Positions 3,241 through 36,328 are shown, counted from the stretch's first letter. The stretch: DNA of 64,000 nt from an uncultured Candidatus Saccharibacteria bacterium (GCA_964633425.1 CAZWFX010000001.1:74687-138686), one strand, 5' to 3'. Numbers and translations are program-made. The notes: generated by a model not told the origin, from the sequence alone.

Positions 3241-3516
3241 GTACAGTCTATAGCCAAATCGATAGACACACGTATCGCCAGGAGAGCCACCGTTCGCCGG
3301 TACCTTTCCTGGAAACCCAGATCTTGGGTTCCGGAAAAATCGCTTCGAAGTTTTCTTGTATCTTGGATGACTAGAAAGTAGAATGCCTGTTCGTGAGGCT
3401 TCCTTGGCAATCCCAATCCATGTGTGTTTTTGGGTTTTTGGGTTTTGGGAGACTCGGATTGGTCTCGATAAGGTTTCTTATATCTAAACCCTATCAAATC
3501 ATCAACTAACGTTTCT

Positions 3517-3529
3517 TATTATATCACAT
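3517..3529 (-). promoter_or_regulatory. Extended -10 promoter (TGaTATAAT) reading leftward toward the helicase operon
   Basis: The minus strand reads TGTGATATAATAA. The TATAAT hexamer is perfect, and the TG sits one base upstream (TGnTATAAT). It lies in the 400-nt divergent region between the helicase and DUF1376 genes. Confidence 0.4.
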
Positions 3530-3595
3530 TTTCGGAAAAGATTCTGTAGTGCCGCTTACACTTTGGTGCGATTTGTCAATTTGTGTCTTTTGCCA

Positions 3596-3624
3596 TTGAC
3601 TACCAGAAACCAAACCACTAGGCT
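3596..3624 (+). promoter_or_regulatory. Sigma70-like promoter TTGACT-17-TAGGCT for the rightward replication operon
   Basis: TTGACT at ~3596, a 17-nt spacer, then TAGGCT. The ATG at 3637 is only ~5-6 nt past the predicted transcription start (near-leaderless). Confidence 0.35.
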
Positions 3625-3636
3625 CTTCCATGTAAA

Positions 3637-4458
3637 ATGACCGCTCAGCTCAAAACCGTGCCCTTCTACCTACAGGCCTGGACTCAAGACGAGTTCGTAA
3701 AAACTCTTACGGCAAGAGAGACTGGTATCTATTGGAAATTACTGGTGTTTCAGGCAGAAAACGGGTCTATCCCAGTAGATTTGGCGTCTATGTCGGCGGA
3801 TCTTGGGGTGCCGATCGTGGAGCTGAAGGAGGACTGGCCGAAGCTAAGTGGGAAGTTTCAGCTTGGGGAGGATGGGCGGCTGAGGAACCGAAAGATGCAG
3901 ATGGCGATAGAGTATGCCGAATTCCAGTACCGAAAGAAGGCGGCGCAGGATGCCGCTGAGGCTTTTCGGCAGGCGAGGAAGGGCTATTACGTAACGGATC
4001 AGGCCATGGAGAGGATTTTAAGTACGTTTCCAAGGCGAAACGGAAACCCCAAGGATGGTCACACTCGGGCGATGTCTATGATACGAGCAGCGATTCATTC
4101 TGATGAAGATTTGGAAAGGATGATTGCGGCGATAACGGCATACAAGACGTACTTAACTCATACATACAAGGCCAAGTCCGATCTGCTTCAGTTTACCAAG
4201 AGAATTGACAAGTGGATGGAGTCCTGGCAGGACTGGGTCCCTGAAAAACCGGTGGTCAGGGAGGAGGCGATTGTTCAAATCCCTGACTTTAAGACTGTAG
4301 ATGAGGAGTTGGCGTGGAAGAGGCAGCAGGGTATGTTACCCAAGTACCCTCCTGGGTCCAGGTTTCCCTGGGAGCCAAGGTACGGGGCAACCCCTCTTGA
4401 GCTGAAGGCCATCAGGGAGAAATGGACTGACTCTAAAAAGAAAGAAGCCGTACAATAA
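3637..4458 (+). CDS. DUF1376 (YdaU-like) phage replication-associated protein
   Basis: The N-terminal pattern FYLQAWTQDEFVKTLTARETGIYWKLL...ENGSIP is typical of the DUF1376 family found in phage replication modules. It is the first gene of the plus-strand block, and its stop overlaps the dnaB start (TAATG). Confidence 0.4.
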   Translation: MTAQLKTVPFYLQAWTQDEFVKTLTARETGIYWKLLVFQAENGSIPVDLASMSADLGVPIVELKEDWPKLSGKFQLGEDGRLRNRKMQMAIEYAEFQYRKKAAQDAAEAFRQARKGYYVTDQAMERILSTFPRRNGNPKDGHTRAMSMIRAAIHSDEDLERMIAAITAYKTYLTHTYKAKSDLLQFTKRIDKWMESWQDWVPEKPVVREEAIVQIPDFKTVDEELAWKRQQGMLPKYPPGSRFPWEPRYGATPLELKAIREKWTDSKKKEAVQ

Positions 4459-6974
4459 TGTCTGATGATAATCAGTCGGAAAATAGTAAAGTACAAATAG
4501 AGACATCAATTGCCTTTGATGAAGGCAAGCAACTAGCATTCCTCGGATGGCTTTTTAGAGACCCCGGCTTGTTCGCTCAGGCGGCCAGGATCGTAAAGCC
4601 CGATTGGTTTACTGACATTTTTGCCAGGAAAGCCTACAAGGCAATGCTGGAGATCGGAAAGGCCTTTCATCGACACCCAGAGCCAGCAGAAATCCACCAG
4701 TGGAGAGGTCTTAACGGAGAAGACAGTCGAACTCGCGGCAAGATCGAACAGATCGTGTCGAGGGGGATTGAGTCTAGTATGGGGTACGGTCTGGACCTCA
4801 TTCGGTCGGACATGCAGTCGTGGCTGATGGCCACATTGTTTGTTGAGACCATCCAGAAGTCTGTTCCGGTATTTAACTCAAAGGATGTCTCCAGGGCAGT
4901 AGAACTAATGGAGAAGGGGATCTTGAAGATCAAAGCCTCTTCTTTTGCAGACGGGATTCACCAAGGATTTTCAGAGTCCCCATCCAACATGAGTCTTGAA
5001 AGGGCAGATCGGCTTCGTCACAGGGAGCGAATCCTAGAGTACGGAGTGACCTTCTTAGATGACGCCTTGTGTGGGATTCGGCCCACTGAGCTGATTATTC
5101 TAGGGGCCAAGGCCGGATGTCATGCTCTTGGACAAAAAATTAGAATGTTTGATGGATCTGTTAAGGAAGTTCAAGATATTGTATCCGGAGACCTTCTAAT
5201 GGGCACGGACGGAAATCGTCGGGTTGTTACGGGATTAATTACTGGTAAGGGTGTGATGTACAGGGTCTCTCCTGTAAAAGGAGAGCCGTTTGTAGTAAAT
5301 GGAGATCATGTTCTTAAGGTTGCTTGGACAGAATTCGATCAAACGCATTACGTTACGGTTGAACAATTCCTGGCTTGGCCAGTTACGTATCAAAAAAGGT
5401 CCAAGCTAATCCGATCTGGTGGCGTGGACTACAAGGAAGTAAATCTACCAGTCGACCCGTACTTTTTAGGAGTCTTGCTTGGAGACGGCTGCCTGGCTTC
5501 TCATCCGGTTGGAATTACAACGAAAGACCCTGAAATTCTTAGAGAAATTGAAAATCAAGCAGAATTGCTAGACTTACGAATTTCTAAGTTTGATAATAAC
5601 GGGAAAAGATGTCCAACGTATCACCTGCCGAAAAAAAATAGCGCAAAGGGCAGACAGTCATCTCTTGGAAGAGATTTGGAGTATCTTGGATTATTAGGAA
5701 AAAGATCTAACGATAAATTCATCCCAGATATCTATAAAAAATCTGGAAAGAAACAAAGACTGAGTCTACTCGCCGGATTGATTGACACGGACGGATCGCT
5801 TGGATGCTCGGTTTATGACTACATTTCTAAGTCCAAGCAACTATCGTTTGATGTTTGCGAGTTGGCTAGAAGCGTTGGCTTGGCGGCATACGTAAGGTCT
5901 TGTATTAAGACGGACCAGAACGGTGTTTCTGGCGAATACTGGAGGGTTTCTATTTCAGGTAATACTGAAATGGTTCCATGTCGTATTGAAAGAAAGAAAG
6001 CAAATAAGAGAATACAGAAAAAATCCGTATTAAGAACAGGGTTTACGATCCAGGCTATTGGAGAAGAATCTTTTTATGGGTTTGAACTTTCTGATGATGG
6101 AGAATATCTTCTAGAAGATTTCACGGAGACACACAATAGCGGCAAAACCCAGTTAAGTCTGTCTATTGCATTACATAATGCACAAAAAGGAAAGCGCGTA
6201 CATTTTTTCGCACTAGAAGCAGATCAGTACGAAATAGAGCGAAGAATTAAATACTCTATTCTAGCTAACTACTACTACAGCTCAGGAAACCACAAACACA
6301 TCGACTACGGTGCCTGGCTGAATGGGGAACTTGAAGACGAGTTGGGTGAGCTTGAAACCGCCCTTCAGGGCCAGTTTGAAGACGCTGTAAAAAACCTTAA
6401 CCTTCTCTATCGTAGAGACGGTATGTTCGACCTTGATGCCCTCAAGGAAGAACTCCTTAGTCTTGTCGGGAAAACCGACCTGATCATCCTTGATCACCTC
6501 CACTACATCGACACCGACGGGGATGAAGAAAATCGGGTATACGCGGAAGCCATTAAAACTATTAGGGATATTGTCTTAAGGTATGAGATTCCGGTTATTG
6601 TTGTTTGTCACCTTAGGAAGGACTCCACGTTTAAGGGAACTCCTACGATTGTTCCCAAGCTTGAGGACTTTCATGGAACCAGCAATATTGGCAAGATTGC
6701 CACGACGGCGATTATGCTTGGTAGGGCGTTTGACCGGGAGCCTAGCGTCCCTGGGTATTTCTTACAGCCAACCTACATGAGGATTACCAAGTCCCGAATG
6801 GATGGCGGGCGAACGTACTTTGTGGCTCTGACTGAATTCAACACCAGAACCAACTGTTACGAGCCGGTATACAAGCTTGGACGTCCAAGTAATCACGACA
6901 CGGAATGGACTGAGCTGGAAAACCTCTTGCCTTTCCAGAAGAGGCTTGCTAGTATTTTGAACATCACGCTTTAG
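4458..6974 (+). CDS. dnaB: Replicative DNA helicase DnaB-like, interrupted by an in-frame intein
   Basis: DnaB N-terminal domain. The Walker A is split: ILGAKAG | C...intein...HN | SGKTQLS, reconstituting GAKAGSGKT. The C-terminal half has the DnaB motifs LIILDHLHYID and IPVIVVCHLRK. Confidence 0.85.
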   Translation: MSDDNQSENSKVQIETSIAFDEGKQLAFLGWLFRDPGLFAQAARIVKPDWFTDIFARKAYKAMLEIGKAFHRHPEPAEIHQWRGLNGEDSRTRGKIEQIVSRGIESSMGYGLDLIRSDMQSWLMATLFVETIQKSVPVFNSKDVSRAVELMEKGILKIKASSFADGIHQGFSESPSNMSLERADRLRHRERILEYGVTFLDDALCGIRPTELIILGAKAGCHALGQKIRMFDGSVKEVQDIVSGDLLMGTDGNRRVVTGLITGKGVMYRVSPVKGEPFVVNGDHVLKVAWTEFDQTHYVTVEQFLAWPVTYQKRSKLIRSGGVDYKEVNLPVDPYFLGVLLGDGCLASHPVGITTKDPEILREIENQAELLDLRISKFDNNGKRCPTYHLPKKNSAKGRQSSLGRDLEYLGLLGKRSNDKFIPDIYKKSGKKQRLSLLAGLIDTDGSLGCSVYDYISKSKQLSFDVCELARSVGLAAYVRSCIKTDQNGVSGEYWRVSISGNTEMVPCRIERKKANKRIQKKSVLRTGFTIQAIGEESFYGFELSDDGEYLLEDFTETHNSGKTQLSLSIALHNAQKGKRVHFFALEADQYEIERRIKYSILANYYYSSGNHKHIDYGAWLNGELEDELGELETALQGQFEDAVKNLNLLYRRDGMFDLDALKEELLSLVGKTDLIILDHLHYIDTDGDEENRVYAEAIKTIRDIVLRYEIPVIVVCHLRKDSTFKGTPTIVPKLEDFHGTSNIGKIATTAIMLGRAFDREPSVPGYFLQPTYMRITKSRMDGGRTYFVALTEFNTRTNCYEPVYKLGRPSNHDTEWTELENLLPFQKRLASILNITL
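5118..6137 (+). mobile_element. Intein (340 aa) with a LAGLIDADG homing-endonuclease domain in the DnaB P-loop
   Basis: Starts with Cys (CHALGQKIRMFDGS). LAGLIDADG blocks LGVLLGDGCL and LAGLIDTDGSL. Ends ...FTETHN, followed by the +1 Ser of the extein SGKT. Confidence 0.8.
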
Positions 6975-7472: not shown

Positions 7473-7489
7473 GGCTATATTCATGGTGA

Positions 7490-10126: not shown

Positions 10127-10146
10127 AAGGGCTATATCCCATTGCA

Positions 10147-13278: not shown

Positions 13279-13308
13279 TCATATCCCCAGGCTACAATCT
13301 TTGGTGAA

Positions 13309-13866
13309 ATGCGAGTCTTCGCAGTAGACCTCAGTCTACACACCGGTTGGGCCTTTCTTGAAGATCAAAACGTCATCGACTACGGCCTTATAGAGGCCGG
13401 AAAACCCAAGGATTTTGGTAAATTCCCCTGGAATTACTTGAAGATAGCCAAGAGTCAAGCCAAGGCCATTTTTAGTCAAATTGCAGACAGGAAACCGGAT
13501 CTGGTTGTTGTGGAGCAAACCAATAAGGGGCAAAACCGATTCTCCCAGAAAATCCTGGAATTTTTGCATTTTGCCTTGCTTCAAGAGCTGGAGTGGGTGT
13601 ATGATGTCAAGTACGTGGACACTTCAGCCTGGAGGAAGGCACTAGACCTAAAGCTGACCAAAGAACAAAGGGCAGCAAACAAGCTTTCAAAGAAAAAGAA
13701 AAAAGAGCTAGGGATTTCAGGCAAGGTCACCCCGAAGCACCTTGCAGTAGAATATTGTTCTAAATTGCTAGGAAAGTCCTTCAAACTAAAGGACAATGAC
13801 ATTTGCGACGCCATCTGCATCGGAATGGCCGTGGCAAATGGGTGCAGCTTTTCGTTACCGACCTAA
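13309..13866 (+). CDS. RuvC-like Holliday junction resolvase
   Basis: N-terminal VFAVDLSLHTGWAF resembles the RuvC motif ILGIDPGxxxxGxAV. Acidic VVVEQ. C-terminal DNDICDAICIG resembles RuvC DAADALAIAI. Confidence 0.7.
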   Translation: MRVFAVDLSLHTGWAFLEDQNVIDYGLIEAGKPKDFGKFPWNYLKIAKSQAKAIFSQIADRKPDLVVVEQTNKGQNRFSQKILEFLHFALLQELEWVYDVKYVDTSAWRKALDLKLTKEQRAANKLSKKKKKELGISGKVTPKHLAVEYCSKLLGKSFKLKDNDICDAICIGMAVANGCSFSLPT

Positions 13867-13882
13867 CGAGGTTATATTACAA

Positions 13883-16297
13883 TTGACTAAATATACAGAA
13901 GAGGAAGTTATCAAAGAAGCTTTGTCGTTTTTTAACGGCGATGAGCTGGCAGCCGACGTGTTTACAAAATACGCTCTCAGCGACAGCGACAACAACTACT
14001 ATGAGAAGTCGCCGCTAGATACGTTTAATCGACTAGCTACTGAGTTTAGTAGGATAGAGGCCAAGTACCAAGCTCCCCTTTCCCACCAGGAAATCTACGA
14101 TTACTTGGTGGGTATGACCATTATTGCTCAGGGGTCGCCGATGGCTGCCATTGGCAATCCCTTTCAGCTACAGAGCGCATCGAATTGCTTTGTGATTGAA
14201 AATACGGTGGATTCCTACGGTGGGATCTTCTTGACGGACCAGCAGCAGGTCCAGATCATGAAGCGTCGTGGCGGCGTTGGCAATGACATCTCTGGCATCA
14301 GGCCCAAGGGGATGCCGACTTCTAATGGAGCCAAAACAACCGATGGTATTGGCGTCTTCATGGAGAGGTTTTCCAACTCTACCAGGGAGGTGGCACAAAA
14401 CGGGCGTCGTGGCGCCAGGATGATCACGATCTCGGTGCATCACCCCGAGATCCTTACCTTTATTCGCATCAAGAGGGACCTCCAAAAGATCACTGGAGCG
14501 AATATTTCAGTGAGGGCTACTGACGAGTTCATGCGGGCCGTTAGGGATGGAGCTGACTACCAGCAGCGGTGGCCGGTTGATTCAGACAAGCCACTAATAA
14601 CCAAAGCTGTTTCAGCAAACGAGATCTTTGAAGAGATTGCTCAGTGCGCCTGGGAATGCGCCGACCCAGGAATGCTTTTTTGGGACTCTGTCATAAGAGA
14701 GTGCCCGGCCGATTGCTACCCAAGGTACCGAAGCATCAGCACGAACCCTTGCGGCGAGCTGAATCTGTCGGCCAACGACTCTTGTCGGTTGATCTTGATC
14801 AACTTTAAGAAGTTCGTTAGGAATCCCTTTACCAACAAGGCCTATTTTGACTACGAGGCACACGCCAAGGCTGCTCGTGTCGGACAGAGGCTGATGGACG
14901 ACTTGGTCGATATTGAACTAGAACAAATCGACAAGATCTTGGCCAAGATTGAACAGGATCCGGAGCCAGACCTTATCAAGCAGGTCGAGAAGGACCTTTG
15001 GGTCAAGATTCGTGAGGCTTGTCAGAATGGCCGCAGGACTGGCCTTGGGGCTACTGGAGTAGGTGACGCCGTGGCGGCACTTGGTATCAAGTACGGCTCA
15101 AGGGAGTCCATTGACGCAGTGAGCCTCATGTATGAAAACCAGGCAAGGGCTGCTTACAAGGAGAGCGTCCAACTAGCCAAGGAGCGCGGCGCCTTCCCTG
15201 AGTTTAACCGTGACCTTGAAGCCGGTCATCCATTCCTTGATCGGGTAGGTGTTTACGAGAACCCCGATTACGCCAAGTATGGGCGTCGGAACATCTCGTG
15301 CCTGACAACCTCTCCGGCCGGATCGGTCAGCTGCCTGGCCCAGACCACATCCGGAATCGAACCCGCCATCTTTCTTTCGTACATGAGAAAGCGGAAGGTG
15401 GTGGCTGGCGATCCTAGTGCAACATACGTAGATGAGCATGGAGATCACTGGCAAAAATACCAGGTGTACCATTTGGGACACCAGGAGTGGCAGCTAGCCA
15501 ATCCAGACAAGCCAGAGACCGAAAGTCCGTACTGGGGCTGCACTGCCGAAGACATCAATCCAATGGATAAGATCAAGCTTCAGGCTGCTGCCCAACTCTG
15601 GGTCGATCACGCCATTTCCAATACCATTAACTTGCCAAATACTGCTACCAAGGAGGACGTAGCCAACGCATACCTTTTTGGCTGGAAGGCTGGCTGCAAG
15701 GGCATTACGGTCTATCGGGCTGGATCCAGAAACTCCGTCATTTCCAAGACCGACGACACGGTTAAGAAGACCAACATGATCGTTGAGACCAATGCTCCAA
15801 AGCGCCCGGCAGAGCTGCCCTGTGACATCCACAGGTCGCGCATCAAAGGGGACGAGTACACGATCTTGGTAGGTCTCCTGAACGGCAAGCCCTACGAGGT
15901 TTTTGCCGGATTGACTTCTAATATCGAACTGCCAAAGAACGAAGAAACCGGGACGTTAACCAAAAAGGCCAGGTCCTACGACCTAACCCTTAAAAATGGT
16001 ACCGAGTACAAGGACGTGGTGTCTTTGTTTGACAACCCAAACCATGGAGCCTTCACCAGGACCCTTTCAACCGCCCTAAGACATGGCGTACCAGTCCGCT
16101 ACCTGGTCGAGCAACTCAGGAAGGACAAGCACTCAGATCTATATAGCTTCTCCACCGTCATGGCCAGGGTGCTTGCCAAGCACTACATCCAAGACGGGGT
16201 TGAAGCCGGCAAATGCCCTGAATGTGGGGAAAAGGCCTTAAAGTACATCCAGGGTTGCCCAATGTGCCAGGAATGTGGCTATAGTAAGTGTGGGTGA
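13883..16297 (+). CDS. nrdJ: Class II (adenosylcobalamin-dependent) ribonucleotide reductase NrdJ
   Basis: Active-site TNPCGE, GCKGITVYRAGS, and the C-terminal zinc ribbon CPECGE...CPMCQECG. The ORF track starts at 13796, which overlaps ruvC. A TTG at ~13883 preceded by GGTTATAT is the preferred start. An ATG at ~13838 is an alternative. Confidence 0.8.
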   Translation: MTKYTEEEVIKEALSFFNGDELAADVFTKYALSDSDNNYYEKSPLDTFNRLATEFSRIEAKYQAPLSHQEIYDYLVGMTIIAQGSPMAAIGNPFQLQSASNCFVIENTVDSYGGIFLTDQQQVQIMKRRGGVGNDISGIRPKGMPTSNGAKTTDGIGVFMERFSNSTREVAQNGRRGARMITISVHHPEILTFIRIKRDLQKITGANISVRATDEFMRAVRDGADYQQRWPVDSDKPLITKAVSANEIFEEIAQCAWECADPGMLFWDSVIRECPADCYPRYRSISTNPCGELNLSANDSCRLILINFKKFVRNPFTNKAYFDYEAHAKAARVGQRLMDDLVDIELEQIDKILAKIEQDPEPDLIKQVEKDLWVKIREACQNGRRTGLGATGVGDAVAALGIKYGSRESIDAVSLMYENQARAAYKESVQLAKERGAFPEFNRDLEAGHPFLDRVGVYENPDYAKYGRRNISCLTTSPAGSVSCLAQTTSGIEPAIFLSYMRKRKVVAGDPSATYVDEHGDHWQKYQVYHLGHQEWQLANPDKPETESPYWGCTAEDINPMDKIKLQAAAQLWVDHAISNTINLPNTATKEDVANAYLFGWKAGCKGITVYRAGSRNSVISKTDDTVKKTNMIVETNAPKRPAELPCDIHRSRIKGDEYTILVGLLNGKPYEVFAGLTSNIELPKNEETGTLTKKARSYDLTLKNGTEYKDVVSLFDNPNHGAFTRTLSTALRHGVPVRYLVEQLRKDKHSDLYSFSTVMARVLAKHYIQDGVEAGKCPECGEKALKYIQGCPMCQECGYSKCG

Positions 16298-16300: not shown

Positions 16301-16486
16301 ATGTCTAGGTCAAAACAACGATCTCGATGTCAGCATAGCTGCGTGTCGTGTAAATCATGGAAAAAGGGCTATCCGTCATTGACTGCGCAGGACGCCAAAT
16401 CTCTCGAAGATGCCCATCTTCAGCTCGAAGAGGCGAAGATGGTCAAGGATGAAGACCACGAAGAAGACGAGCAGGCTATATATTAG
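16301..16486 (+). CDS. Hypothetical small Cys-containing acidic protein
   Basis: 61-aa ORF directly after nrdJ. Confidence 0.3.
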   Translation: MSRSKQRSRCQHSCVSCKSWKKGYPSLTAQDAKSLEDAHLQLEEAKMVKDEDHEEDEQAIY

Positions 16487-16489: not shown

Positions 16490-17272
16490 ATGTCTTTTGT
16501 AGACCCATACGCAGATCAAGAAGAAGAGGTCGAAGAGGAGGTCCAGGAGCCTCAAGTCGATTCTCGCTCCGCATTCAAGGAAGCACGCAAGAAGCTAACC
16601 AAGGCAGCCTTTTACGAACAGCTGGCCAATGAAGCCATTTTCAATGGAGGATCCGAGGAAGACGATGAGGTCAACTTGGAGATCCGAGAGTGGGCTGAAC
16701 GTCAGATGTTTGAACTGTTAAATGTAAGCCAGCCCACAAAATCTACGGTATCTGAGCAGTTCTCTGAAGAAGAGGTGGAGGTTCTAAAAGCCCTATCTCG
16801 TCTTACGCACGAAGAGGTTGAGGCTCTAAAGGCTCTGACCAAGACCATTGCGGTTACGGCCACCGGGGTGCCTGTTCCCAAGAAGCTCTCTGGCCCTTCC
16901 GCAACGCCCCCACAGCCACCCAAGCCCAAGGCTCCGGCTCCGCCAAGGATCAAGGCCAAGAAGAGCAAGGAGGAGGCTCCCAGGAGCAGGGTCAAGCCCC
17001 TAAGAGAGCGTCCCCGTGAGATCGAAAAGCCGCAAGAAGGTGTCTATAGGAGGATGAACCAGGGGGTCCAGCTTCCCAAGGAAGCCCTGGCGCCACCGCC
17101 CACGGCCATTCCATTCCCCGTTGGAGAGGCGTATTCGGCAGCACAGGCTCAGCTAGCGTCAAACCTTATCACCGGAGGAGTTAACACTGCTCAGGTGGAT
17201 TCAGGGACAGGACCGTCGACTGGACTAAGTCCAGACCAGCTCGGTGGACTAATCAACGGCTATATTAGGTAA
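16490..17272 (+). CDS. Hypothetical acidic / Pro-rich protein
   Basis: GGCTATAT 8 nt upstream. Internal peptide repeat EVEVLKALSRLTHEEVEALKALTKT. Confidence 0.4.
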   Translation: MSFVDPYADQEEEVEEEVQEPQVDSRSAFKEARKKLTKAAFYEQLANEAIFNGGSEEDDEVNLEIREWAERQMFELLNVSQPTKSTVSEQFSEEEVEVLKALSRLTHEEVEALKALTKTIAVTATGVPVPKKLSGPSATPPQPPKPKAPAPPRIKAKKSKEEAPRSRVKPLRERPREIEKPQEGVYRRMNQGVQLPKEALAPPPTAIPFPVGEAYSAAQAQLASNLITGGVNTAQVDSGTGPSTGLSPDQLGGLINGYIR

Positions 17273-22051: not shown

Positions 22052-24331
22052 ATGAAGATAAAGGAAATCCTCTCGGTTAAAACAGAACGGAAGCCCGGAT
22101 GGCTAGATCGCCGCTTCGGAGAGCACTTTGCTCGAATTTCAACCGTTACTACCAGGAAGCTGAAATATGCCATCAGGGACGTCGCCCGCTTTACTTACGG
22201 CAAGGGCATGATCCCGTATGACATCGAGCGACTGGCCAAGGCCATTCAGACTCCACCACAGGGCGTGAACGACTACGACTTCGTATTCGGCTATGAAGAG
22301 GCAGGACGTTTCGTTGAGGGTACGATAAATACTGACCCAGCTCTAAAGGAGTATGTCAAAAAATACCCTAACCAATGGAAGATTGTAGTCAAATGCCTTA
22401 GCTTGGTTAGAAACAGCTCGCTACACGCCTGTGGTTATGTAATCGCCTCCAGGCCAATCCGGGAGTTTATGCCGCTCTCTTCCATAAAGGGAACTGAGTG
22501 TACAGAATTCACGGCTAATTCATCAGACGGGATATCTTCCGTTGAGGGCGTAGGCGGCATCAAATACGACTACCTTAAACTAAACTCTCTAAAAGATGTT
22601 CAGATTGCAGTTAAACTAATACAAAAACGATCTGGACTTCAAATACCTGATTTTATTACAAAAAATGGGCGATGTCCAAAGGTCAGGATCCTACCATACA
22701 AAGGCCAATTAGAAGACATCTGGACGTCGTTACCTGAAGAGCCTGAAGTTTTTTCGGACATTTCCAATGGGGATACGGAGTCTGTTTTTCAGCTTTCTAC
22801 TCAAGGAGCCTTGAAGTGGCTGAAACTTTTTAATCAGGTAGGAAGGGACGAAAAGCCACTAATCTCGTCTGTAAGAGATATCGCTATTTTTACAGCCCTA
22901 GATCGACCAGGGCCGCTCGATATCGAGCTTACCAATCCAGAAGACGGGTCTAAGCACAACGCCTTGGTTGAGTACGTGAGAAGGGCCAGAGGACTGCCTC
23001 CATCAGAGGATATTTTGGAGGTCTTTGACAAACTTTTTCCTGAGACCAAAGGGATTCTTGTTTTCCAAGAACAGCTCCAGAGAGCATACCAGACACTCAC
23101 AGGCTGTTCTGGGGCTGAGGCCGATGAGTTCCGCTCAAACGTCGCCAAGAAGAGGGCGACCAAGGTGGCGGCCGCTTACGAGACGTTCGTTAAGCGGGCT
23201 GGGCAAATCCTTGGATCTGAAGAAAAGGCGGCTCAGGTATTTCAAGCTTTCGGAACCTGGTCAAACTATGGGTTCTGCCTAGCTCACGCCGTTAGCTACG
23301 CAAGACTTGCGTACGTTATTGCCTTTCTTAAGCGTCATTTTCCACTTGAATGGTGGACGGCCGTGTTGTCAAACGCCACCAAGGACGATATCTCCGATAA
23401 GTTCTGGCCAAAATGCTCAGAGATTATTGATTTGCCAGACATGTCAAATCCAAGAGATCGATTCGATATCGTAAATGAAAGAATTCAAGCCCCAATAGGA
23501 ATGCTTTGGGGTGTCGGCGGCAAGGCTCAAGAACAAATAGTCGCTTTTGCCCCATATTCTACAATCGATGAGTTTTGTGGTGGTATCCAAAAGTACAAGG
23601 AGCTAAATGCTATCACCACAACCGAAACAAAAGAAGTTAAGGGCGTGGTGAAGACTGTTTCTAAAAGGCGTCTTGGAAGATCGGCTGTCCATTCTGGTGT
23701 CGTGTACTCGCTCGTTGTCTCGGGAGCTATGGACAGCCTGTTTGAGCCAGGCCTTACCCTTGAAGAAAAGCTCCTGGCATACGAAAAAGCCATTGCCAAG
23801 GCCTCTGGAGCAAAAAAACACAAACCAGTCAAACCACAATTTAAGGATCTGAACGCCTACAACCAATTCCTAATGAGGAAGAAGCTCTTGCCAGTCTTTA
23901 CACAGAGCCTTCCAGATCTAATGGTAGACTGTAAACATCCATTAGTTTCAACTACTTATGGCAAACCCAGGTACAAGATAGCCGATCGGTTTGTGGACTT
24001 ATGGGGACTTAAGGAGCTTCGGCAGTTTGAAGAACACGGAAGTTCCATTCCGTCCGGAGGCTACCGAGCCGCCATTCCAGGATACGTCTCTAGCGTTAGG
24101 CGTTTTACGTTTGATGGCAACAAGGAAGCTTGTGCGATTGCTTTGAATATTGAGGGCGTCAATCAAGAATTTGTTAAGTGGCCGGATTGGAACTCTAAAA
24201 AGCTAGATCCGCGATACGACGCGGATCTGGAAAAGAGTCTGCTAGTTTTACATGTCGTAAAGCGACGTGAAGATCGGCCGTTCGTCGTTGAAAACTTTGA
24301 GGTTTTGGCCTCTAATCAAGCAAAACCGTAG
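22052..24331 (+). CDS. dnaE: DNA polymerase III alpha (DnaE) C-terminal segment: fingers and downstream domains
   Basis: [24 protein letters not shown] matches DnaE [46 protein letters not shown] matches R.TGxHAAGVVIS..PL...VPL. Confidence 0.8.
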   Translation: [759 protein letters not shown]

Positions 24332-24362
24332 GGATTAAAGACACTTAGGCTATATCCTAAGT

Positions 24363-27300
24363 GTGACACCAGAAGAAAAACAGCAGCTTGAGCGCCAGCT
24401 CCTGTTCACTCCTTGCAAGACAAAGGAGGAGCTGGGGGACTGGATAGATCACATGCTGGGGTATCGGTTACCCGACTGCATTGTTGACGCCGACTCCAAC
24501 TCCTCTCCATTAGATCTTGTTTGGGAGATCTACCACGAAGCTCTCTACGTAAACAATCCAAATTTCGAAAAGATTCTAGCATACGCGAACAGATTTGGCG
24601 CGAAAACCCTGGGCGCTAGTGCCCTAGAGCTTTTGATGGTCTTTCATGACCAAAGAGACGTTGTCCACCTGGCTGCCATTGAGGAGCAGTCAACAGACTG
24701 CCTCAACTACGTTAAAAAGGCACTCCGCAATCCCGTAATGGCACCTTTTGAGGTTCAGGGAGATAAACGAGCCATTACGATCCAAGTCTTTAAAAAAGAC
24801 GGTAAATACTATTCCCCTAAGGAATATGAAAAAATCCCGGATGTAGAAAAGTTTGGGTTTCAGGAGTATTTCAATAAAATTGAAGTCATTGTGGCGACTC
24901 CAAAGTCGCTCAACGGGAAGCATGGCGCTTTCTTTTGTATTGATGAAAATACACCATTACTAATAGCAGATAAAACCAGATCGAGGAAAAGTCGGTCGGC
25001 CAAATTTGTCTTTAACACCATAGCCGGGCTCCCGGTAACAGGCAGGAGGGGTCGTCTTCCTATAGAAGATCTTGACATTTCTAACCCACAAAAGGATATT
25101 GAACTACTTACCTTCAATTTCTCTACAGGAAGCCTGGAGCCAAAGAAGATCCTTCGCGGACATCGTAAAAGGGCACAAACGATAAATATCGTGGCGGGCA
25201 AGAGGAGTTTGATTTGTACGCTAGATCATCCCATCTTTGTATTCGGGAAAGGCTTCACAGAAGCCGGTGCTGTGTCTCTAGGAGATAAGATTCTCGCGAT
25301 CGGCAAGGGTGGCTGGGGAAATCGACAATTCCTGTCAAAGGAGATTCAAAACAAAGATTCGATCATACGAGATCCTGGAGATCTATTTGAGCAGGTCGTC
25401 TTAGGTTCTCTCCTTGGCGACGGATCTTGTCTAAAACATACTCGCAGCAAAAACGCTTATTTTTCTGAACGACACTGCATTGAGCAGGCTGAATATCTAA
25501 ACTGGAAACGTCAGATAATTGGTCAGCAAGTAAAAACCTCAGAATGTAAAAACATAGCCAGCGGGTATACCGGGAATCCTCAAGCTGGATTCTATACACA
25601 AAATAGTCATATATTTAACCAATGGTTAGGATTTAAGCAGAACTTTCAAAATCTCGAAAAGATTAGTCCCATTGGACTTGCAGTTTGGTATATGGACGAC
25701 GGGTACGCTAAAGGATTTAGTATAGCTTCTCATGGGTTCACTAAAAATCAAAATGAGAGACTTGTTGAAATTCTTTGGAATAAATTTCAAATAAAAGCTA
25801 GAGTTGCTAGAGAAGTTAAGAAAGACGGAAGATCCTATTGGTATATAACAGGAGGATTAGATGCAAAAAAACGCTTGGTAGAAATTTGTCGTCCATACAT
25901 ACACCCACAAATGGCGTTCAAGTTTGATATAGAAAGTCACTCCAAACAGTGTGTCGCTTGTGGTCATAAATTTTGGCCACATCAGCAAGGACCAAGTTCA
26001 AAAACTTGTGGACAGGCCGTATGTCTGTCGGTCCTAGCGGGTACATTTGAAGCCGTGTCTGTCGATAGAATTGAACCTGCAGGAGAAAGAACCGTTTATG
26101 ATTTTACGGTAGAAAATAACCACAATTTTTTCAGTGGACAGATCCTTAGCCATAATTGTATGGACGAAACAGACCTTCTTGACAACGAGTCTATCGTCCA
26201 AGAAGCCGACGGAGTACCCACCCCAACAAAAGATAGAAGAGCCAAGCACCCGATCGTCTATATGACATCTACCAGAAAGAAGGCGGCGGGTAGGGTCCAG
26301 AAGCTTATTGATAGGGCAGAGCAAGAAGACATCCGTGTTAGACACTGGAACTTGATTGACATCACAAAACCATGTCCCCCAGAAAAACACCAACCAAACG
26401 AACCTAAGGTCTCGATGTATGTGGACGACAACGCCCTCAAGGCCATCCCAGAAGAATCATACGAACAGCTAAACGAAGGCGATCGACTAAAATATCAAAA
26501 ACACGAGATGTTTCAGGGCTGTAAGTCCTGCCCATTGGCCGCCACTTGTAAGAGTCGGTTGGCTACTCATCAAAAATCCAGTAATTCTACACTCTTACTG
26601 GATCACGCATTCACCACCAAAAAGGTAACTAAGGGAAATATTGAATTCATTAAGTCGCAGTTTCTATGCAGGAAACCGCTGTCTACCGGATCTATCTTTT
26701 CTAGGTTTAGCAGAGAAAGGCATTTACTTTCAGCGGCTGAGATCTATGAAAAGCTAGAGCAGCAAGAGGCCCCAGCCAACTTTAACAAGCAAAGTCTAGT
26801 CAAGTATCTAAAGGCTCATCCACTGGCCAAATTTTACGGTGGTATTGACTTTGGTTACACCCACATGTTTGTTGCTATAGTCGCGGCCAAGGTCGGTCTC
26901 CACTGGTTTGTATTGGACTGCCTTATGGCCACCGAGTTGGAGACCATGGAATGCGTGGATTTGTGCAAGAGATCCTTTTATCATTACGGAGCTGAATGGT
27001 ATCCGGATCCTGAAAATCCACAACTTATAAGTACGTTTAAAAAGCATGGATTTAATTGTATCGATTTTTCCAAGAAGAAAGGGACGGTCTTGGCTGGAAT
27101 TGAGGCGATTCGAGCAAAGCTCAATCCTGGACCAGATGCCGAACCTCAAATGTTCTTTCTGAAGGGAGATCCTTCTATTGACGGGGAAGAAGAGTCTTTA
27201 GTGGAAGCCATGGAAAAATGGGCCTGGAAGTTGTCTCCTGCCGGAGAGCCGACAGACATCCCTGCAGAAAAGCATAAGGACCAATGCTTTACGTCAGATA

Positions 27301-28538
27301 CGGAGGTACTGACCCCATCTGGGTGGGTTTCCCTTAAGGACATCACAACAGAGGATGAGGTTTTGTCTATTACCAGAAACGGCGTCGCTTATTTTGAAAA
27401 ACCGTATCGGGTGATCCATCAAACATATTCTGGACCTATGATTTCAATTCATAAAAATCATTTAAAGTTCAGCTCAACTAAGGGACACGCCCATTCCGTA
27501 ATAAGTCAATTTAACTGGAGGGTAAAGAAGAGATGGATTTTTGATAAAAAGACGTTCGATGAACTCCCGGCTGAGTCTTATTGGGCTAACTCGTTCAAAG
27601 AAATTGCTGAAGGTCCGGGTCTGTTTGAGGGAGGACAAGACGAGGCCTGGGTTGCTGGGTTTTGGGTTGCCGAGGGATGCTTTGATCGGTCCAACCCAAC
27701 TCAAATTCTAATAGATCAAAAAAAAGAAAAACACAAAAAAGAATGTCGTGAGAGGCTTAGCCGTCTCGGGTGGTCATATTTTGAAAAGACAAGAGCACAA
27801 GATCGGCTTATGACTAGGTTTTGTATTAATAGTCAAAGAGATCGAATAGTTAAATGGAAAGAGTGGTTTAATCATGGAGCCAAGAATAAAAAACTCAATC
27901 CGGGTATTGTTTTACAAATGACAAAAACGGAACGTCGCTCGTTTTTTGATGGATATATGGCAGGAGACGGCTCTACGACCCAAAGTCTTTGGCATTTTGA
28001 TTCTATTTCCAGAGATCTTATTGATGGAATCCAATTTTTAGCGTTGTGCCTTGGATATGGATGTCGTGTAGTTACCTATGACTGTATGAGAGAAGATCGT
28101 CCTTCTACCCTTAAGGGTAAGATGCATCGATCATGGAGAGGACATGTTTTAAGATCTAGACCTGTTTGTCATATCAAAAAGAGTAGTTTTTTTGAATGGA
28201 CGGCTAAAGACATTGAGGTTCACTGTGTTTCCGTATCCACTGGGATCTTTTTGGCTAGAACCGCAGGAGATGTCTTCGTGGCCGGAAACTGTGACGCATT
28301 GCGTTATATGGTTTACAACATCACTCCGGTAAGGGCCACAACCGGCAACCGAGGAGGCCGACCTACCAACGAAGAGGTGGCCTCTAGGCCCAAAACCCTG
28401 TCAGAGCAATTTTGGGATACCATGAAATCAGAAGGCGAGCCTCTTTTTGGCCTAGATATGTCAGAAAGGCCGGATCCTTATGACACAGACCCGTCGTCCG
28501 GAAGGCCGTCGCCGAAGATCCGTAAGAGGTTCTTTTAG
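24363..28538 (+). CDS. Terminase large subunit (TerL) interrupted by two inteins; about 649 aa of extein
   Basis: Extein: deviant Walker A ANRFGAKTLG. The Walker B GAFF|CMDE is reconstituted across intein 1. RNase-H-like nuclease motifs YGGIDFGYTH and KHKDQ|CDALRYMVYN are reconstituted across intein 2. GTG start preceded by GGCTATAT inside a hairpin. Confidence 0.75.
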   Translation: MTPEEKQQLERQLLFTPCKTKEELGDWIDHMLGYRLPDCIVDADSNSSPLDLVWEIYHEALYVNNPNFEKILAYANRFGAKTLGASALELLMVFHDQRDVVHLAAIEEQSTDCLNYVKKALRNPVMAPFEVQGDKRAITIQVFKKDGKYYSPKEYEKIPDVEKFGFQEYFNKIEVIVATPKSLNGKHGAFFCIDENTPLLIADKTRSRKSRSAKFVFNTIAGLPVTGRRGRLPIEDLDISNPQKDIELLTFNFSTGSLEPKKILRGHRKRAQTINIVAGKRSLICTLDHPIFVFGKGFTEAGAVSLGDKILAIGKGGWGNRQFLSKEIQNKDSIIRDPGDLFEQVVLGSLLGDGSCLKHTRSKNAYFSERHCIEQAEYLNWKRQIIGQQVKTSECKNIASGYTGNPQAGFYTQNSHIFNQWLGFKQNFQNLEKISPIGLAVWYMDDGYAKGFSIASHGFTKNQNERLVEILWNKFQIKARVAREVKKDGRSYWYITGGLDAKKRLVEICRPYIHPQMAFKFDIESHSKQCVACGHKFWPHQQGPSSKTCGQAVCLSVLAGTFEAVSVDRIEPAGERTVYDFTVENNHNFFSGQILSHNCMDETDLLDNESIVQEADGVPTPTKDRRAKHPIVYMTSTRKKAAGRVQKLIDRAEQEDIRVRHWNLIDITKPCPPEKHQPNEPKVSMYVDDNALKAIPEESYEQLNEGDRLKYQKHEMFQGCKSCPLAATCKSRLATHQKSSNSTLLLDHAFTTKKVTKGNIEFIKSQFLCRKPLSTGSIFSRFSRERHLLSAAEIYEKLEQQEAPANFNKQSLVKYLKAHPLAKFYGGIDFGYTHMFVAIVAAKVGLHWFVLDCLMATELETMECVDLCKRSFYHYGAEWYPDPENPQLISTFKKHGFNCIDFSKKKGTVLAGIEAIRAKLNPGPDAEPQMFFLKGDPSIDGEEESLVEAMEKWAWKLSPAGEPTDIPAEKHKDQCFTSDTEVLTPSGWVSLKDITTEDEVLSITRNGVAYFEKPYRVIHQTYSGPMISIHKNHLKFSSTKGHAHSVISQFNWRVKKRWIFDKKTFDELPAESYWANSFKEIAEGPGLFEGGQDEAWVAGFWVAEGCFDRSNPTQILIDQKKEKHKKECRERLSRLGWSYFEKTRAQDRLMTRFCINSQRDRIVKWKEWFNHGAKNKKLNPGIVLQMTKTERRSFFDGYMAGDGSTTQSLWHFDSISRDLIDGIQFLALCLGYGCRVVTYDCMREDRPSTLKGKMHRSWRGHVLRSRPVCHIKKSSFFEWTAKDIEVHCVSVSTGIFLARTAGDVFVAGNCDALRYMVYNITPVRATTGNRGGRPTNEEVASRPKTLSEQFWDTMKSEGEPLFGLDMSERPDPYDTDPSSGRPSPKIRKRFF
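24936..26156 (+). mobile_element. Intein 1 in TerL (407 aa) with a LAGLIDADG endonuclease, inserted at Walker B
   Basis: Block A CIDENTPLLIADK. LAGLIDADG-like LGSLLGDGSCL and LAVWYMDDGYA. Block F/G TVYDFTVENNHNFFSGQILSHN. +1 Cys. Confidence 0.75.
27285..28289 (+). mobile_element. Intein 2 in TerL (335 aa) with a LAGLIDADG endonuclease, inserted at the nuclease catalytic Asp motif; non-canonical C-terminal GN
   Basis: Block A CFTSDTEVLTPSGW. LAGLIDADG-like WVAGFWVAEGCFD and FFDGYMAGDGS. C-terminal ...DVFVAGN with +1 Cys. The penultimate residue is Gly where His is usual. Confidence 0.65.
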
Positions 28539-33761: not shown

Positions 33762-33861
33762 TAACTTAGACCTCCATTTTTAGATTGCATCCAGAAAGAT
33801 GTGGTTGTCAAGTCCTAAATAGCCCCTTGACGAAAACGCCTTCATGGACTAGGTTTGCCAA

Positions 33862-34257
33862 ATGGAACTCATTTTAAGGTCTTTGTTAGCATTCTTAGCA
33901 TCATTTCATCTGGAGTTTGGGCTGGCCTATACCTTCAGCGCCTCTGAAGGGCCGCCTTCCAATCCCAATCCCAATGCAGCCTGCCTGGGGAGGGACCTCC
34001 GAGATGACTCTGACTTTGCTGTTGCCCACAGATCCCTGCCATGCAGATCCAAGATCCGCATTTTTAACCTTGACAACGGACGTCATGTTACGGCTATAGT
34101 GGCAGACAGAGGCCCTTACGGCAAGACCAGGAACGGGAAGTACCGAGCCGTCCTGGACATGGCACCCCTGGTAAACAGGGCCCTTAAGGCCAAGGGGCAG
34201 GCCAATGTCATGATCTTGTTCGTAAAATCAGACAATAAACAGGAATCGGCTAAATGA
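33862..34257 (+). CDS. RlpA-like double-psi beta-barrel (DPBB) protein, putative peptidoglycan-binding or lytic-transglycosylase-like
   Basis: AVAHRSLPCRSKIRIFNLDNGRHVTAIVADRGPYGKTRN...LDMAPLVNRAL matches the RlpA DPBB core (AAHrtLPfgT.vrVtNl.NGrsvvVrinDRGPf..gRiiDLS.aAa..Lg). Hydrophobic N-terminus. Confidence 0.65.
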   Translation: MELILRSLLAFLASFHLEFGLAYTFSASEGPPSNPNPNAACLGRDLRDDSDFAVAHRSLPCRSKIRIFNLDNGRHVTAIVADRGPYGKTRNGKYRAVLDMAPLVNRALKAKGQANVMILFVKSDNKQESAK

Positions 34258-34847
34258 ACAACCCCAACGACAAATCCACACAAGATCCAGCACAAGATCC
34301 AGCCAAAGATCCGTCAAATTCAAAACCACAAACAGGATATCTCCTCGCTCCACTTCCGACTCAGGTATTTGGAGCACCGGCCATGACACCGACATATACA
34401 ATGCCCGGAGCTTATATCCCTGCTGGACCGATTATCTTCGCTCCTACGTTTAAACGTCAGACGGTCCTTTCAATGAACCTTGACGACAAGGGCAACCTCA
34501 AATACCCCCTCCAAAAGGGAGACTATGTCGCCAACGTGGCGTACCCAGGGGTGAAATTCGTGATCAAGGACATGATCCCATCTAGGACGTCCCAGTACGG
34601 AGGATATGAGGTTCGCGTAGAGTACGTGGAAGGATCGGACTCGGTAATGAAGACCTGGGACCCCTATCTCTGGGACCCTGCCTCAGATTTCTATCCCTAT
34701 GATCTGGCAGTTCAGTTTTGGCCAAACAAATACACACCCAAAACAGATAATCGTTATCCACACAAATGCACGTTTTGCGGAGGGCCTGCCTATATCGGCT
34801 TTAGCTCACTCGACTGCAAAAATAAGTGTAATGGGAAGAAACGTTAG
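34254..34847 (+). CDS. Hypothetical protein with a C-terminal Cys cluster
   Basis: HKCTFCGG...CKNKCNG. Confidence 0.35.
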   Translation: MNNPNDKSTQDPAQDPAKDPSNSKPQTGYLLAPLPTQVFGAPAMTPTYTMPGAYIPAGPIIFAPTFKRQTVLSMNLDDKGNLKYPLQKGDYVANVAYPGVKFVIKDMIPSRTSQYGGYEVRVEYVEGSDSVMKTWDPYLWDPASDFYPYDLAVQFWPNKYTPKTDNRYPHKCTFCGGPAYIGFSSLDCKNKCNGKKR

Positions 34848-35206
34848 TGACCAGAAAAGCGATCGTAGAGGTGCTTGGCTAGATACCCAAAAGATGTCCC
34901 GAATATGGTGCCAAGTAGACCATAAATGGTCTGTTTGAACTTGGCCATCTTGACTTCCTTTGCGGCGATTAGATCTAGGGATTTTTCGTGAGATTGGACC
35001 TTTTGCGATAGGTCCTCGACAGAGCTTTTGACGGATTTGATTTCGTCAGAGAGACGGACACTGCCTTCGCTGACTTGAAGGCTAATATACTTTAAGGCCG
35101 TTGATGTCTCGGCCAATGACGACTTGATTTCAGATCTTTCTGACTCCAGGTCTGTAAGCCTGTTGTCGAGATATCCATAACTATCGGCAAAGGTCTTTGG
35201 GCCCAT
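34844..35206 (-). CDS. Hypothetical coiled-coil protein with a C-terminal TM helix
   Basis: TAATCTTTTAGGTAAC late motif upstream on the minus strand. Confidence 0.4.
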   Translation of the reverse strand: MGPKTFADSYGYLDNRLTDLESERSEIKSSLAETSTALKYISLQVSEGSVRLSDEIKSVKSSVEDLSQKVQSHEKSLDLIAAKEVKMAKFKQTIYGLLGTIFGTSFGYLAKHLYDRFSGH

Positions 35207-35231
35207 CTCTTGTTACCTAAAAGATTACCAC

Positions 35232-35687
35232 TCACAAGCCCAATTCCCTCAGCGCCTCCAAGGCGTCGTCGAGTGTCGAGTGGGGCCTCTCATACTGCGT
35301 CCCCCACGAAGGATCTTGGTGGTCTGGATCCGCGTGCCCCTGGTGGCCCAAAACAGCGTGGAGTAGCTCGTGGGCTAGACTGGTGCCGCTAAATTGCCTG
35401 GTCCCAGGCTCCCAAGCCACCTGGCCAACATACAGATCAGGCCAAAAAACTCCAGAAGCACATAGATCCATCAGCGGCCCCTTCATGTTGTACCTTAGAT
35501 AAAATCCTGTCCCGTAGGAACAGTTTAGATTTTGGCTAAAAACCCAAAGGATTTCAGGGGGTTCCGTCGTTTGTTTGTAAACACCATTCCAAACCACTGC
35601 GATAGCCAGGTCTTGGTTTGGAAGTTTTAGGGGTTTTGCGGAGCAACCGATGAGAAGGGCGGCGATCAGGGCGATTACGTACTTCAA
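35232..35687 (-). CDS. Secreted lipoprotein zinc metallopeptidase (HExxH)
   Basis: Lipobox LIGCSA. SLAHELLHAVLGHQGH contains HExxH plus a downstream His. Strong SD GGAGGTGA with a TTG start. Confidence 0.5.
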   Translation of the reverse strand: MKYVIALIAALLIGCSAKPLKLPNQDLAIAVVWNGVYKQTTEPPEILWVFSQNLNCSYGTGFYLRYNMKGPLMDLCASGVFWPDLYVGQVAWEPGTRQFSGTSLAHELLHAVLGHQGHADPDHQDPSWGTQYERPHSTLDDALEALRELGL

Positions 35688-35761
35688 GGCTCACCTCCAT
35701 CTTACTATAGATAAAGCTTAATGGCCGGTGGGCCAAAAAGTCAAGGGCTATATTTGGTAAG

Positions 35762-36328
35762 GTGGAACACAAAAAGAAGCCTGTTGGTGGAGAGCAGCCC
35801 AACAAACTACCTCTTTTCCTAGACAGGAAGAGGAAGGTGTCCTACTCGTTGTATCGGTGGGATAAACCCGAGGAGGTGCTTTATCGGGTCAACAAAGAAT
35901 CAACTCTTCGGCTTTTGGTGGAGGAGGCGATGGCAAAAGGGGTGTCTCTGGATCGGGTAAACCTAACCAATGCGTACCTGTACGGCCTAACCACACCCAA
36001 GACTCATAGGGTTATGCGATCCGCCAAGTTGGACTGGTCCCTACTGGCGTATTCTCAGTGGACCCTGGTGGATTTGTCGTATTCTTCAATACAAAAGGCG
36101 GTTTTAACAGGCAGTCAGTTTAGGATGTGTGTCTTTGAAGAGGTGGATTTTGAAGAATCTGATCTAACCAGATGTCGTTTTGTGGAGTGCAGGTTCGTTC
36201 GCTGTAACTTCAAGAACACCGTTGCTAAAAAGACCAAGTTTTACAAGTGCCTGTTTGACAGGTGCCTTAGTCAGCCAGATCTTGGTTTTAAGTCTCACTT
36301 GATAAAAACCCAAAAAATAGACTTCTAG
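35762..36328 (+). CDS. Pentapeptide-repeat protein
   Basis: Clear 5-residue periodicity: VDLSY SSIQK AVLTG SQFRM CVFEE VDFEE SDLTR CRFVE CRFVR CNFKN. GTG start preceded by GGCTATAT. Confidence 0.5.
   Translation: MEHKKKPVGGEQPNKLPLFLDRKRKVSYSLYRWDKPEEVLYRVNKESTLRLLVEEAMAKGVSLDRVNLTNAYLYGLTTPKTHRVMRSAKLDWSLLAYSQWTLVDLSYSSIQKAVLTGSQFRMCVFEEVDFEESDLTRCRFVECRFVRCNFKNTVAKKTKFYKCLFDRCLSQPDLGFKSHLIKTQKIDF

Follow-up and report, generated by a model that had tools for sequence, protein, structure and literature searches.

A stretch of 64,000 nucleotides from a genome assembly of an uncultured Candidatus Saccharibacteria bacterium (GCA_964633425.1 CAZWFX010000001.1:74687-138686; referred to below, at its full length, as the window) carries the short element GGCTATA directly upstream of seven genes. 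These encode a helicase, a GroEL-like chaperonin, an SbcC-like ATPase, two proteins of unknown function, the large terminase TerL, and a pentapeptide-repeat protein. The window has a GC content of 0.50 and is part of an uncultured phage distantly related to Myxococcus phage Mx1. We conclude that GGCTATA is a real, conserved, and functional-looking promoter-like element. We also consider it reasonably likely, with a probability of roughly 65%, that it is a promoter giving leaderless or nearly leaderless mRNAs. The promoter activity, the transcription start point, and the leaderless translation are all predictions from sequence.

In the proposed arrangement, a promoter lacking a -35 box would have GGCTATA(T) as its core. 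GGC would occupy positions -15 to -13 and TATA(T/A)N positions -12 to -7, so that the element resembles an extended -10. The hexamer ends 6 to 9 nt before the start codon, and therefore transcription should begin at or beside that codon. RNA polymerase would start at the G or A of GTG or ATG, or at most 3 nt upstream of it. With no room left for a Shine-Dalgarno (SD) site, the resulting message would be translated in leaderless or nearly leaderless form. The host primary sigma factor would read the element, with a GGC contact in place of the -35 contact. The genes served in this way would be mostly early or middle ones (the helicase-sigma operon, the GroEL-like gene, SbcC, and the two genes of unknown function), together with those for TerL and the pentapeptide-repeat protein.

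An element next to seven start codons

GGCTATAT occurs six times in the window compared with 0.74 expected, a count that was reached in none of 100 shuffles. All six copies (at 7473, 10130, 16474, 17258, 24348, and 35746) are on the plus strand. Each is on the coding strand and ends 7 to 10 nt 5' of the first in-frame start of an open reading frame (ORF) of at least 175 aa. The shorter GGCTATA occurs 10 times, compared with 3.8 expected. For upstream-region statistics, we used 54 window ORFs called with a codon-usage score. GCTATA was present eight times in their -35 to -1 regions, compared with 0.23 expected (p 9e-11). Enrichment upstream of start codons had been proposed as a check in a sequence-only reading of this DNA, and these counts bear it out.

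The site outside the GGCTATAT group is on the minus strand. There, GGCTATAG (3248 to 3255) ends 7 nt 5' of the helicase GTG at 3240, with GGC followed by TATAGA and 6 nt, and it heads an operon of helicase, sigma-like, and 92-aa genes. The copy of GGCTATAT at 7473 to 7480 consists of GGC and TATATT, 8 nt before the TTG at 7490 of the GroEL-like gene. The copy at 10130 to 10137 has GGC and TATATC, 8 nt before the GTG at 10147 of the SbcC/Rad50-like ATPase gene. Two copies precede the genes for a 260-aa protein of unknown function (16474 to 16481; GGC, TATATA, 7 nt, and ATG at 16490) and a 175-aa protein (17258 to 17265; GGC, TATATT, 9 nt, and ATG at 17276), the latter lying within the 3' end of the preceding ORF. 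The last two precede the intein-carrying large terminase (24348 to 24355; GGC, TATATC, 6 nt, and GTG at 24363) and the pentapeptide-repeat protein (35746 to 35753; GGC, TATATT, 7 nt, and GTG at 35762). None of the seven window sites has a -35 box; matches to TTGACA are 1 to 3 of 6 positions, which is the background level. Ten instances had been listed in the sequence-only reading. Seven of them hold, but the ruvC and dnaE sites belong to other classes, and the nrdJ site is doubtful (see below). The coordinates given there were right or off by one (24349 is 24348, and 20026 is 20025).

The element is conserved in related phages. Closer relatives, with 54-90% protein identity, came from GroEL and helicase protein searches, after which their contigs were examined (metagenomic loci L088 to L097). 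GGCTATA precedes helicase, GroEL, or SbcC orthologs in L088, L089, L091, L092, L095, L096, and L097. The GroEL site is conserved in L088, L089, L091, and L092, the SbcC site is conserved in L089, L091, and L092, and the helicase sites in L095, L096, and L097 read GGCTATA, 6 to 7 nt, and GTG. Together with those of the window, this makes 17 sites at which GGCTATA is invariant while the flanks diverge. The hexamer that follows GGC begins with TATA at all 17, continues with T at 11, and ends in T at 8, C at 6, and A at 3. The spacer between hexamer and start codon is 6 nt at seven sites, 7 nt at three, 8 nt at six, and 9 nt at one. The start codon is GTG at 13 sites, TTG at 2, and ATG at 2. We regard this footprint as the strongest evidence for what appears to be a functional element whose distance to the start codon matters. 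It also answers the suggestion that the motif be looked for in related phages, because it was found there, invariant, at orthologous genes. Across 47 loci of the wider family, GCTATA is the most enriched upstream hexamer (24 versus 3.1 expected).

The sequence-only reading gave several of these genes GTG or TTG starts, and to the extent that homology can show it, those starts are real. The N-termini of GroEL, helicase, TerL, DnaE, and RuvC orthologs from Mx1 and metagenomic relatives align from window residue 1 to 4. GroEL orthologs align from residue 1, helicase orthologs from residue 1 to 2, and TerL orthologs from residue 1 to 11. An in-frame TGA lies directly 5' of the GroEL TTG at 7490. 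The AAA_23 (P-loop) domain of SbcC begins as early as residue 7, and no further in-frame start occurs before codon 70. The GroEL of L088, a 90% relative, has a public gene call that is 27 codons late (2549-2570; 572 aa versus 599 aa). It is too short because the annotation passed over the conserved TTG that follows GGCTATAT, and it illustrates the misannotation to which this arrangement leads.

The sequence-only reading had also noted that no SD lies between motif and start, and this was confirmed by comparing promoter-adjacent genes with the others in the window. An SD-like tetramer precedes 2 of 20 promoter-adjacent genes but 15 of 34 others (p 0.014), and the anti-SD duplex energies are -2.8 and -4.7 kcal/mol, respectively. 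GTG starts show the opposite bias, at 7 of the 20 versus 1 of the 34 (p 0.0027). GTG enrichment is expected under the leaderless reading because the first base of the codon would be a purine transcription start. The 20-gene set still included the gene at 58007 (see below), which makes the SD and GTG tests slightly conservative. We considered GGTGA beside the GroEL and ruvC starts as an SD but rejected it because it lies 0 to 1 nt from the start and is not kept in L088. Compared with the peak seen before Mx1 genes, that of SD-like words before window genes is much weaker. The weak peak in the window suggests a host with weaker SD dependence.

Relatives also carry the element, or something close to it, in recognizable promoters. 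In L094, the gene syntenic with window ORF 16490 is preceded by TTGACT-N18-GGCTATAAT-N11-ATG, in which GGCTATAAT is (GGC)TATAAT. In L095 and L096, GGCTATA also sits about 25 to 35 nt 5' of an ATG. More distant GroEL and helicase orthologs have TTGAC-N17-TAGAAT with 6 nt and ATG, TGcTAGAAT with 8 nt, TACAAT with 7 nt, or TAGCAT with 6 nt. These -10 hexamers end 6 to 8 nt before the start in distant family members, as in the TTGAC-N17-TAGAAT-ccctgc-ATG of L033. Distant relatives were also examined for a promoter at the terL start, and none was found. Family-wide, a -35 box matching at least 5/6 positions accompanies 3 of 23 GCTATA sites (p 0.01) versus 0 of 54 sites of a second motif, AATCTT, which is described below. 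GC also precedes the hexamer in two promoters that have -35 boxes.

The window itself has three canonical promoters, of the form TTGAC(G/T/A)-N17/18-hexamer, in which the hexamer ends exactly 6 nt before an ATG. They are at 33827-33864 (plus strand, start 33862), 36816-36778 (minus strand, start 36780), and 55880-55842 (minus strand, start 55844). We consider these three to be evidence, independent of the motif, for leaderless transcripts from host-type promoters. The proposal of a -10-like element with a transcription start at or near the start codon is therefore the best-supported part of the sequence-only reading: orthologous conservation, canonical promoters in relatives, more GTG, less SD, and three promoters with 6-nt spacing all favor it. 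However, that the messages are leaderless is something we infer.

Each marked gene had been described as following a small gap and as the first gene of a transcription unit. This was only partly right. The gaps range from 3 to 258 nt, two of the motifs are inside the preceding ORF, and there are no terminator-like sites before the motifs. Generic sigma70 and terminator scans of the window gave counts at shuffle level and no terminator-bounded units. We conclude that transcription reads through this gene array and that the marked genes have promoters internal to it, rather than forming terminator-bounded units.

Several points weigh against the leaderless reading. Position -7 is T at just 8 of the 17 sites, unusually few for a sigma70 -10 element, whereas GGC never varies; therefore, recognition may not be by an ordinary housekeeping sigma. 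Spacers of 8 to 9 nt predict leaders of 1 to 3 nt, not strictly leaderless RNAs. Two GroEL sites start with TTG, which is a poor leaderless codon in mycobacteria (PMC4633059). Half of the folded sites are in significant hairpins or palindromes, which a promoter model does not explain. The motif is also found before TerL, a gene that is usually expressed late. Only 3 sites underlie the enrichment of -35 boxes at GCTATA. Finally, the leaderless step is predicted from spacing.

Some sites were set apart from the class. The ruvC site (GGCTACAATCTTT, 13290 to 13302, plus strand) was rejected as a GGCTATA member because its conserved part is AATCTT, 7 nt before the ATG at 13309 of the RuvC-like resolvase gene; the RuvC ortholog of L089 has AATCTT, 6 nt, and ATG. 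We reassigned this site to the AATCTT class. The dnaE site (TGCTATAT at 20024) was rejected as a member without a -35 box because a 5/6 box, TTGACT, lies 16 nt upstream. It is a canonical sigma70-type promoter, TTGACT-N16-TGC-TATATT (20005 to 20032, plus strand), located 12 nt before the ATG at 20045 of the N-terminal part of DnaE. This promoter matches the consensus at 10/12 positions and has the TG, and a hairpin, TTGGGC/GCCCAA (z -2.0), lies between its -10 element and the ATG. A promoter before 58007 was rejected as a fourth canonical case with 6-nt spacing, because there are 4 nt between TAGGAC and the ATG.

The nrdJ site (GGTTATAT, 13870 to 13877, plus strand) is a doubtful variant. It is 5 nt before the TTG at 13883, a spacing too short for a transcription start at the TTG. 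The TTG start of NrdJ agrees with the N-terminus of the L094 ortholog. The L089 ORF syntenic with nrdJ has AATCTT instead, and its N-terminus does not align with that of the window NrdJ. A copy of GGCTATAG inside the end of nrdJ (16277 to 16284, plus strand), 16 nt before the ATG at 16301 of a 61-aa ORF, is a possible extra member with a short leader. Two other copies of GGCTATAG (13066 and 34092) are intragenic, with no start near.

The phage sigma factor and the AATCTT motif

AATCTT(T) is more enriched than GGCTATA. It is upstream of 13 of the 54 window genes, compared with 0.64 expected (p 7e-14). In the form (C/T)AATCTT(T), its first bases are at 13296, 28544, 32309, 32707, 36862, 42576, 46498, 47471, 52280, 57439, 59315, and 61885 on the plus strand and at 35221, 57418, and 62491 on the minus strand. 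It occurs before structural genes and ruvC, mostly 6 to 9 nt from an ATG or GTG. The gene preceding portal has AATCTT before it in 40 of 55 family loci and AATCTA or AATCTC in most of the remainder. Between 6 and about 35 nt separate the motif from the start of this gene, and the more distant copies are followed by an SD; this is how a late promoter would behave. We suggest that AATCTT is probably the late promoter of Mx1-like phages. The phage would then have three promoter classes that hug start codons: GGCTATA without a -35 box, canonical TTGAC-N17/18-hexamer promoters 6 nt before an ATG, and AATCTT(T) before structural genes.

The second gene of the operon headed by the motif at 3248 (582 to 1688, minus strand) encodes a sigma70-family protein of 368 aa. 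It is 38% identical to the Mx1 "putative RNA polymerase sigma factor" (E 3e-74) and also matches phrog_351 (E 2e-7). A profile made from 30 orthologs matches RpoD/SigA (E 2.6e-12) over sigma70 residues 371-562, which is region 2 to 4.1. In a profile search against the PDB, the phage sigma ended after region 4.1, without the region 4.2 helix-turn-helix. Region 4.2 being absent, there is therefore no helix-turn-helix to read a -35 box. In the profile alignment, region 2.3 is without the conserved aromatic residues. The orthologs, from at least 30 family loci, share a conserved N-terminal extension of about 130 aa. The operon of helicase, sigma, an approximately 90-aa protein, and a metallophosphatase is conserved as well. 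In L096, a 90% relative, the gene in the sigma position after the helicase encodes 762 aa rather than 368; this ORF was taken by position.

Which sigma reads which motif is an assignment made from sequence. The hexamer TATA(T/A)N is near the sigma70 consensus, TTGAC boxes co-occur with the motif, and the phage sigma operon is itself behind it; therefore, the host sigma is the more likely reader. GGCTATA-type motifs do combine with host-type elements, as GGCTATAAT does with TTGACT-N18 in L094 and GCTATA does with TTGAC in the wider family. GGCTATA heads the helicase-sigma operon in four lineages. For these reasons, we do not favor the dedicated phage promoter class of the sequence-only reading. 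Instead, the host primary sigma probably reads GGCTATA early or in the middle of infection, and the phage sigma more likely reads AATCTT late.

The alternative that survives best keeps the same leaderless architecture but has GGCTATA read by the phage's own sigma (582-1688, minus strand), with an upstream host-type promoter priming an autoregulated helicase-sigma operon. We think this is unlikely. In its favor, a sigma without region 4.2 would suit a motif without a -35 box, and an invariant GGC with a poorly conserved T at -7 is unlike a standard -10. Early transcription could be supplied by TGTGATATAAT, a strong extended -10-like sequence at 3518-3528 (minus strand), which is located within a divergent region of 396 nt and precedes the helicase GTG by about 270 nt. 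The helicase-sigma operon may have a further early promoter in TGTGATATAAT. However, the motif that is conserved family-wide together with the sigma is AATCTT (40 of 55 loci), and AATCTT is never found with a -35 box, whereas GCTATA-type elements do occur with canonical TTGAC boxes. With no conserved aromatics in region 2.3, the sigma is also better matched to an unusual -10 such as AATCTT than to one resembling TATAAT. Moreover, this alternative would need either a single sigma that recognizes both motifs or an additional factor.

Inverted repeats around the element

Some of the sites are within inverted repeats. At terL, a perfect 9-bp inverted repeat (ACACTTAGG and CCTAAGTGT; 24341 to 24364, plus strand) surrounds the CTATAT of the motif, and its 3' arm covers the GTG. 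It folds with -12.0 kcal/mol (z -4.5), and none of 200 shuffles folds as well. Inverted repeats around GGCTATA with a 3' arm ending at or in the start codon are also present in L089 (3388-3421), L091 (394-427 and 3661-3694), and L092 (4787-4820), with z scores of -2.6 to -4.5 when terL is included. Altogether, 7 of 14 folded sites are more stable than shuffles (z -2 to -4.5), and most window sites are without a hairpin. The SbcC sites of L089, L091, and L092 all keep a hairpin, but their stems differ. These inverted repeats could be an operator, a hairpin in read-through RNA, or a processing site.

One reading would give both the motif and the hairpins a role. GGCTATA would be an element of a phage-controlled polymerase, consisting of either the sigma that lacks region 4.2 or the host sigma with a GGC-reading phage factor. 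The hairpins would bury SD-less starts in read-through RNA, so that only leaderless transcripts initiated at the motif would be translated. We consider this a long shot. If it were true, the element would act as a device that insulates transcription and translation together throughout a lineage of soil phages, in which GUG would be the leaderless start of choice.

It is less probable still that GGCTATA is mainly regulatory and not the promoter itself, serving as the operator of a phage or host repressor that binds as a dimer, or as part of a hairpin that hides starts in read-through RNA. The perfect repeat at terL, the significant folding of half of the sites, and the SbcC hairpin that is kept in three relatives with differing stems all speak for such a role. 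However, the other half, including most window sites, have no significant hairpin, and the register of the stem shifts relative to GGCTATA, which is itself invariant and asymmetric. A purely regulatory role would also leave unexplained the 6- to 9-nt spacing and the canonical promoters at orthologous places.

Least probable of all is an RNA-level element in a polycistronic transcript, either a sequence that ribosomes recognize in place of an SD or a site at which an endonuclease creates 5' ends near the start codon: the motif is at the usual SD position where an SD is absent, and the genes are not separated by terminators, but it also occurs 25-35 nt from starts (L095 and L096) and with -35 boxes in relatives, its sequence is a near-consensus -10 element, an Rfam search of the window matched no family, and no complementarity to the 16S 3' tail was found by inspection.

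The phage family and known systems

A megablast search with 20 kb of the window against GenBank phages gave no match. The closest cultured relative is Mx1 (OR576727), whose portal protein is 45% identical to that of the window. The two share a gene order of GroEL-like, SbcC-like, ribonucleotide reductase, DNA polymerase III alpha, helicase with sigma-like gene, terminase, and portal. Metagenomes scanned with a portal profile yielded 80 loci of the same family, many of them on contigs of 160-175 kb. Taken together, these observations identify the window as a fragment of a distant, uncultured Mx1-like myovirus. An exact window 40-mer was not found in IMG/VR, and an IMG/VR scan with GroEL found no relative. 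The exact window portal protein matched only a 5.8-kb Logan contig, which has no host information. In a scan of genome contigs, family members were binned with metagenome-assembled genomes of Myxococcales, Saccharibacteria, and Bacteroidales, which gives no usable host clue for the window. A scan of the window for tRNA found none. Intein and LAGLIDADG domains are present in the DnaB-like helicase (4458-6974) and in TerL (24363-28538; 1391 aa). DNA polymerase III alpha is encoded by two ORFs (20045-21739 and 22052-24331) with an 88-aa ORF between them.

Mx1 has the sigma ortholog and the AATCTT motif in common with the window phage. The GGCTATA class was looked for in Mx1 and not found. However, Mx1 has its own motif that hugs start codons, TAGATC-N18-ATG, which occurs 8 times in 50 kb compared with 0.2 expected, 7 of them at annotated coding sequence starts. 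Examples of TAGATC(AACGCNGTA)-N-ATG in L006 (Mx1 80-130 kb) are at 4498-4524, 5261-5287, 13756-13782, and 48493-48519 (minus strand). This spacing suggests leaderless middle genes in a cultured Myxococcus phage, at least as candidates. A TAGATC upstream half like that of Mx1 was looked for at the window sites, and none was found. Small early genes of Mx1 have TTGAC-N17-TAGTAT, leaders of about 25 nt, and GGAG SD sites. Mx1 uses SD sites much more than the window phage does, with an SD-like word at -12 to -8 of more than 100 of its 206 genes. The Mx1 genome note makes no mention of promoters (PMC10720576), and we found no paper on transcription of Mx1-like phages in the literature that was searched.

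If the leaderless reading is true, then gene callers would have to allow for leaderless starts throughout this phage family, which is large and common in the environment (at least 80 metagenomic loci, with genomes of about 165-175 kb). The transcription program would run from host-type promoters and GGCTATA to AATCTT with a sigma that is unable to read a -35 box. The host of the phage would have to translate messages with a 5'-terminal GUG or AUG efficiently, and so would Myxococcus for the TAGATC-N18-ATG genes of Mx1. Leaderless translation is little documented beyond Actinobacteria and Deinococcus-Thermus.

In extended -10 (TGn) promoters of the sigma70 family, a strong -10 and a conserved G at -14 substitute for the -35 box. 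The window sites have G at -14, and the window dnaE promoter has a true TGC-TATATT. However, position -15 is G rather than T at all 17 sites, and position -13 is an invariant C. Phage late promoters can be read by phage sigmas without -35 recognition, as is the case for T4 gp55 and TATAAATA. T4 late mRNAs have ordinary leaders. A short -10-only element and a phage sigma without the -35-binding part are shared with the T4 late system, which best fits the AATCTT class of the window. It differs from the GGCTATA class, in that the genes behind GGCTATA, among them that of the sigma itself, are predominantly early or middle.

The closest likeness in arrangement is to leaderless genes of Deinococcus-Thermus and Actinobacteria, which have a -10-type element 6 to 7 bp (6 to 9 bp in the phage) before the start, no SD, a dispensable -35 box, and ATG or GTG starts. 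Experiments in D. radiodurans showed that a TANNNT -10 element 6 to 7 bp before the ORF is the promoter of leaderless genes (PMC12340547). The phage block is GGCTATA, with an invariant GGC and a weak -7, and not TANNNT: of the 17 sites, all have A at position 2, but only 8 have T at position 6. More generally, bacterial leaderless genes are recognizable by TA-like signals located about 12 nt upstream of the start (PMC3160421). Leaderless translation in mycobacteria requires an ATG or GTG at the 5' end of the message, and such a codon is also enough for it (PMC4633059); in the phages, the start is ATG or GTG at 15 of the 17 sites and TTG at 2. Among phages, Thermus phage phiYS40 is described by papers that cite the original work (Sevostyanova et al. 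2007) as having mostly leaderless middle and late mRNAs, with promoters that abut start codons (PMC3594737, PMC12340547). As described there, it resembles the window phage in this respect and in being a large phage, although the two are unrelated and its host is of another phylum. A -10 element adjacent to the start codon that gives a leaderless mRNA is an arrangement that is already known, and the seven phage genes are probably a new example of it.

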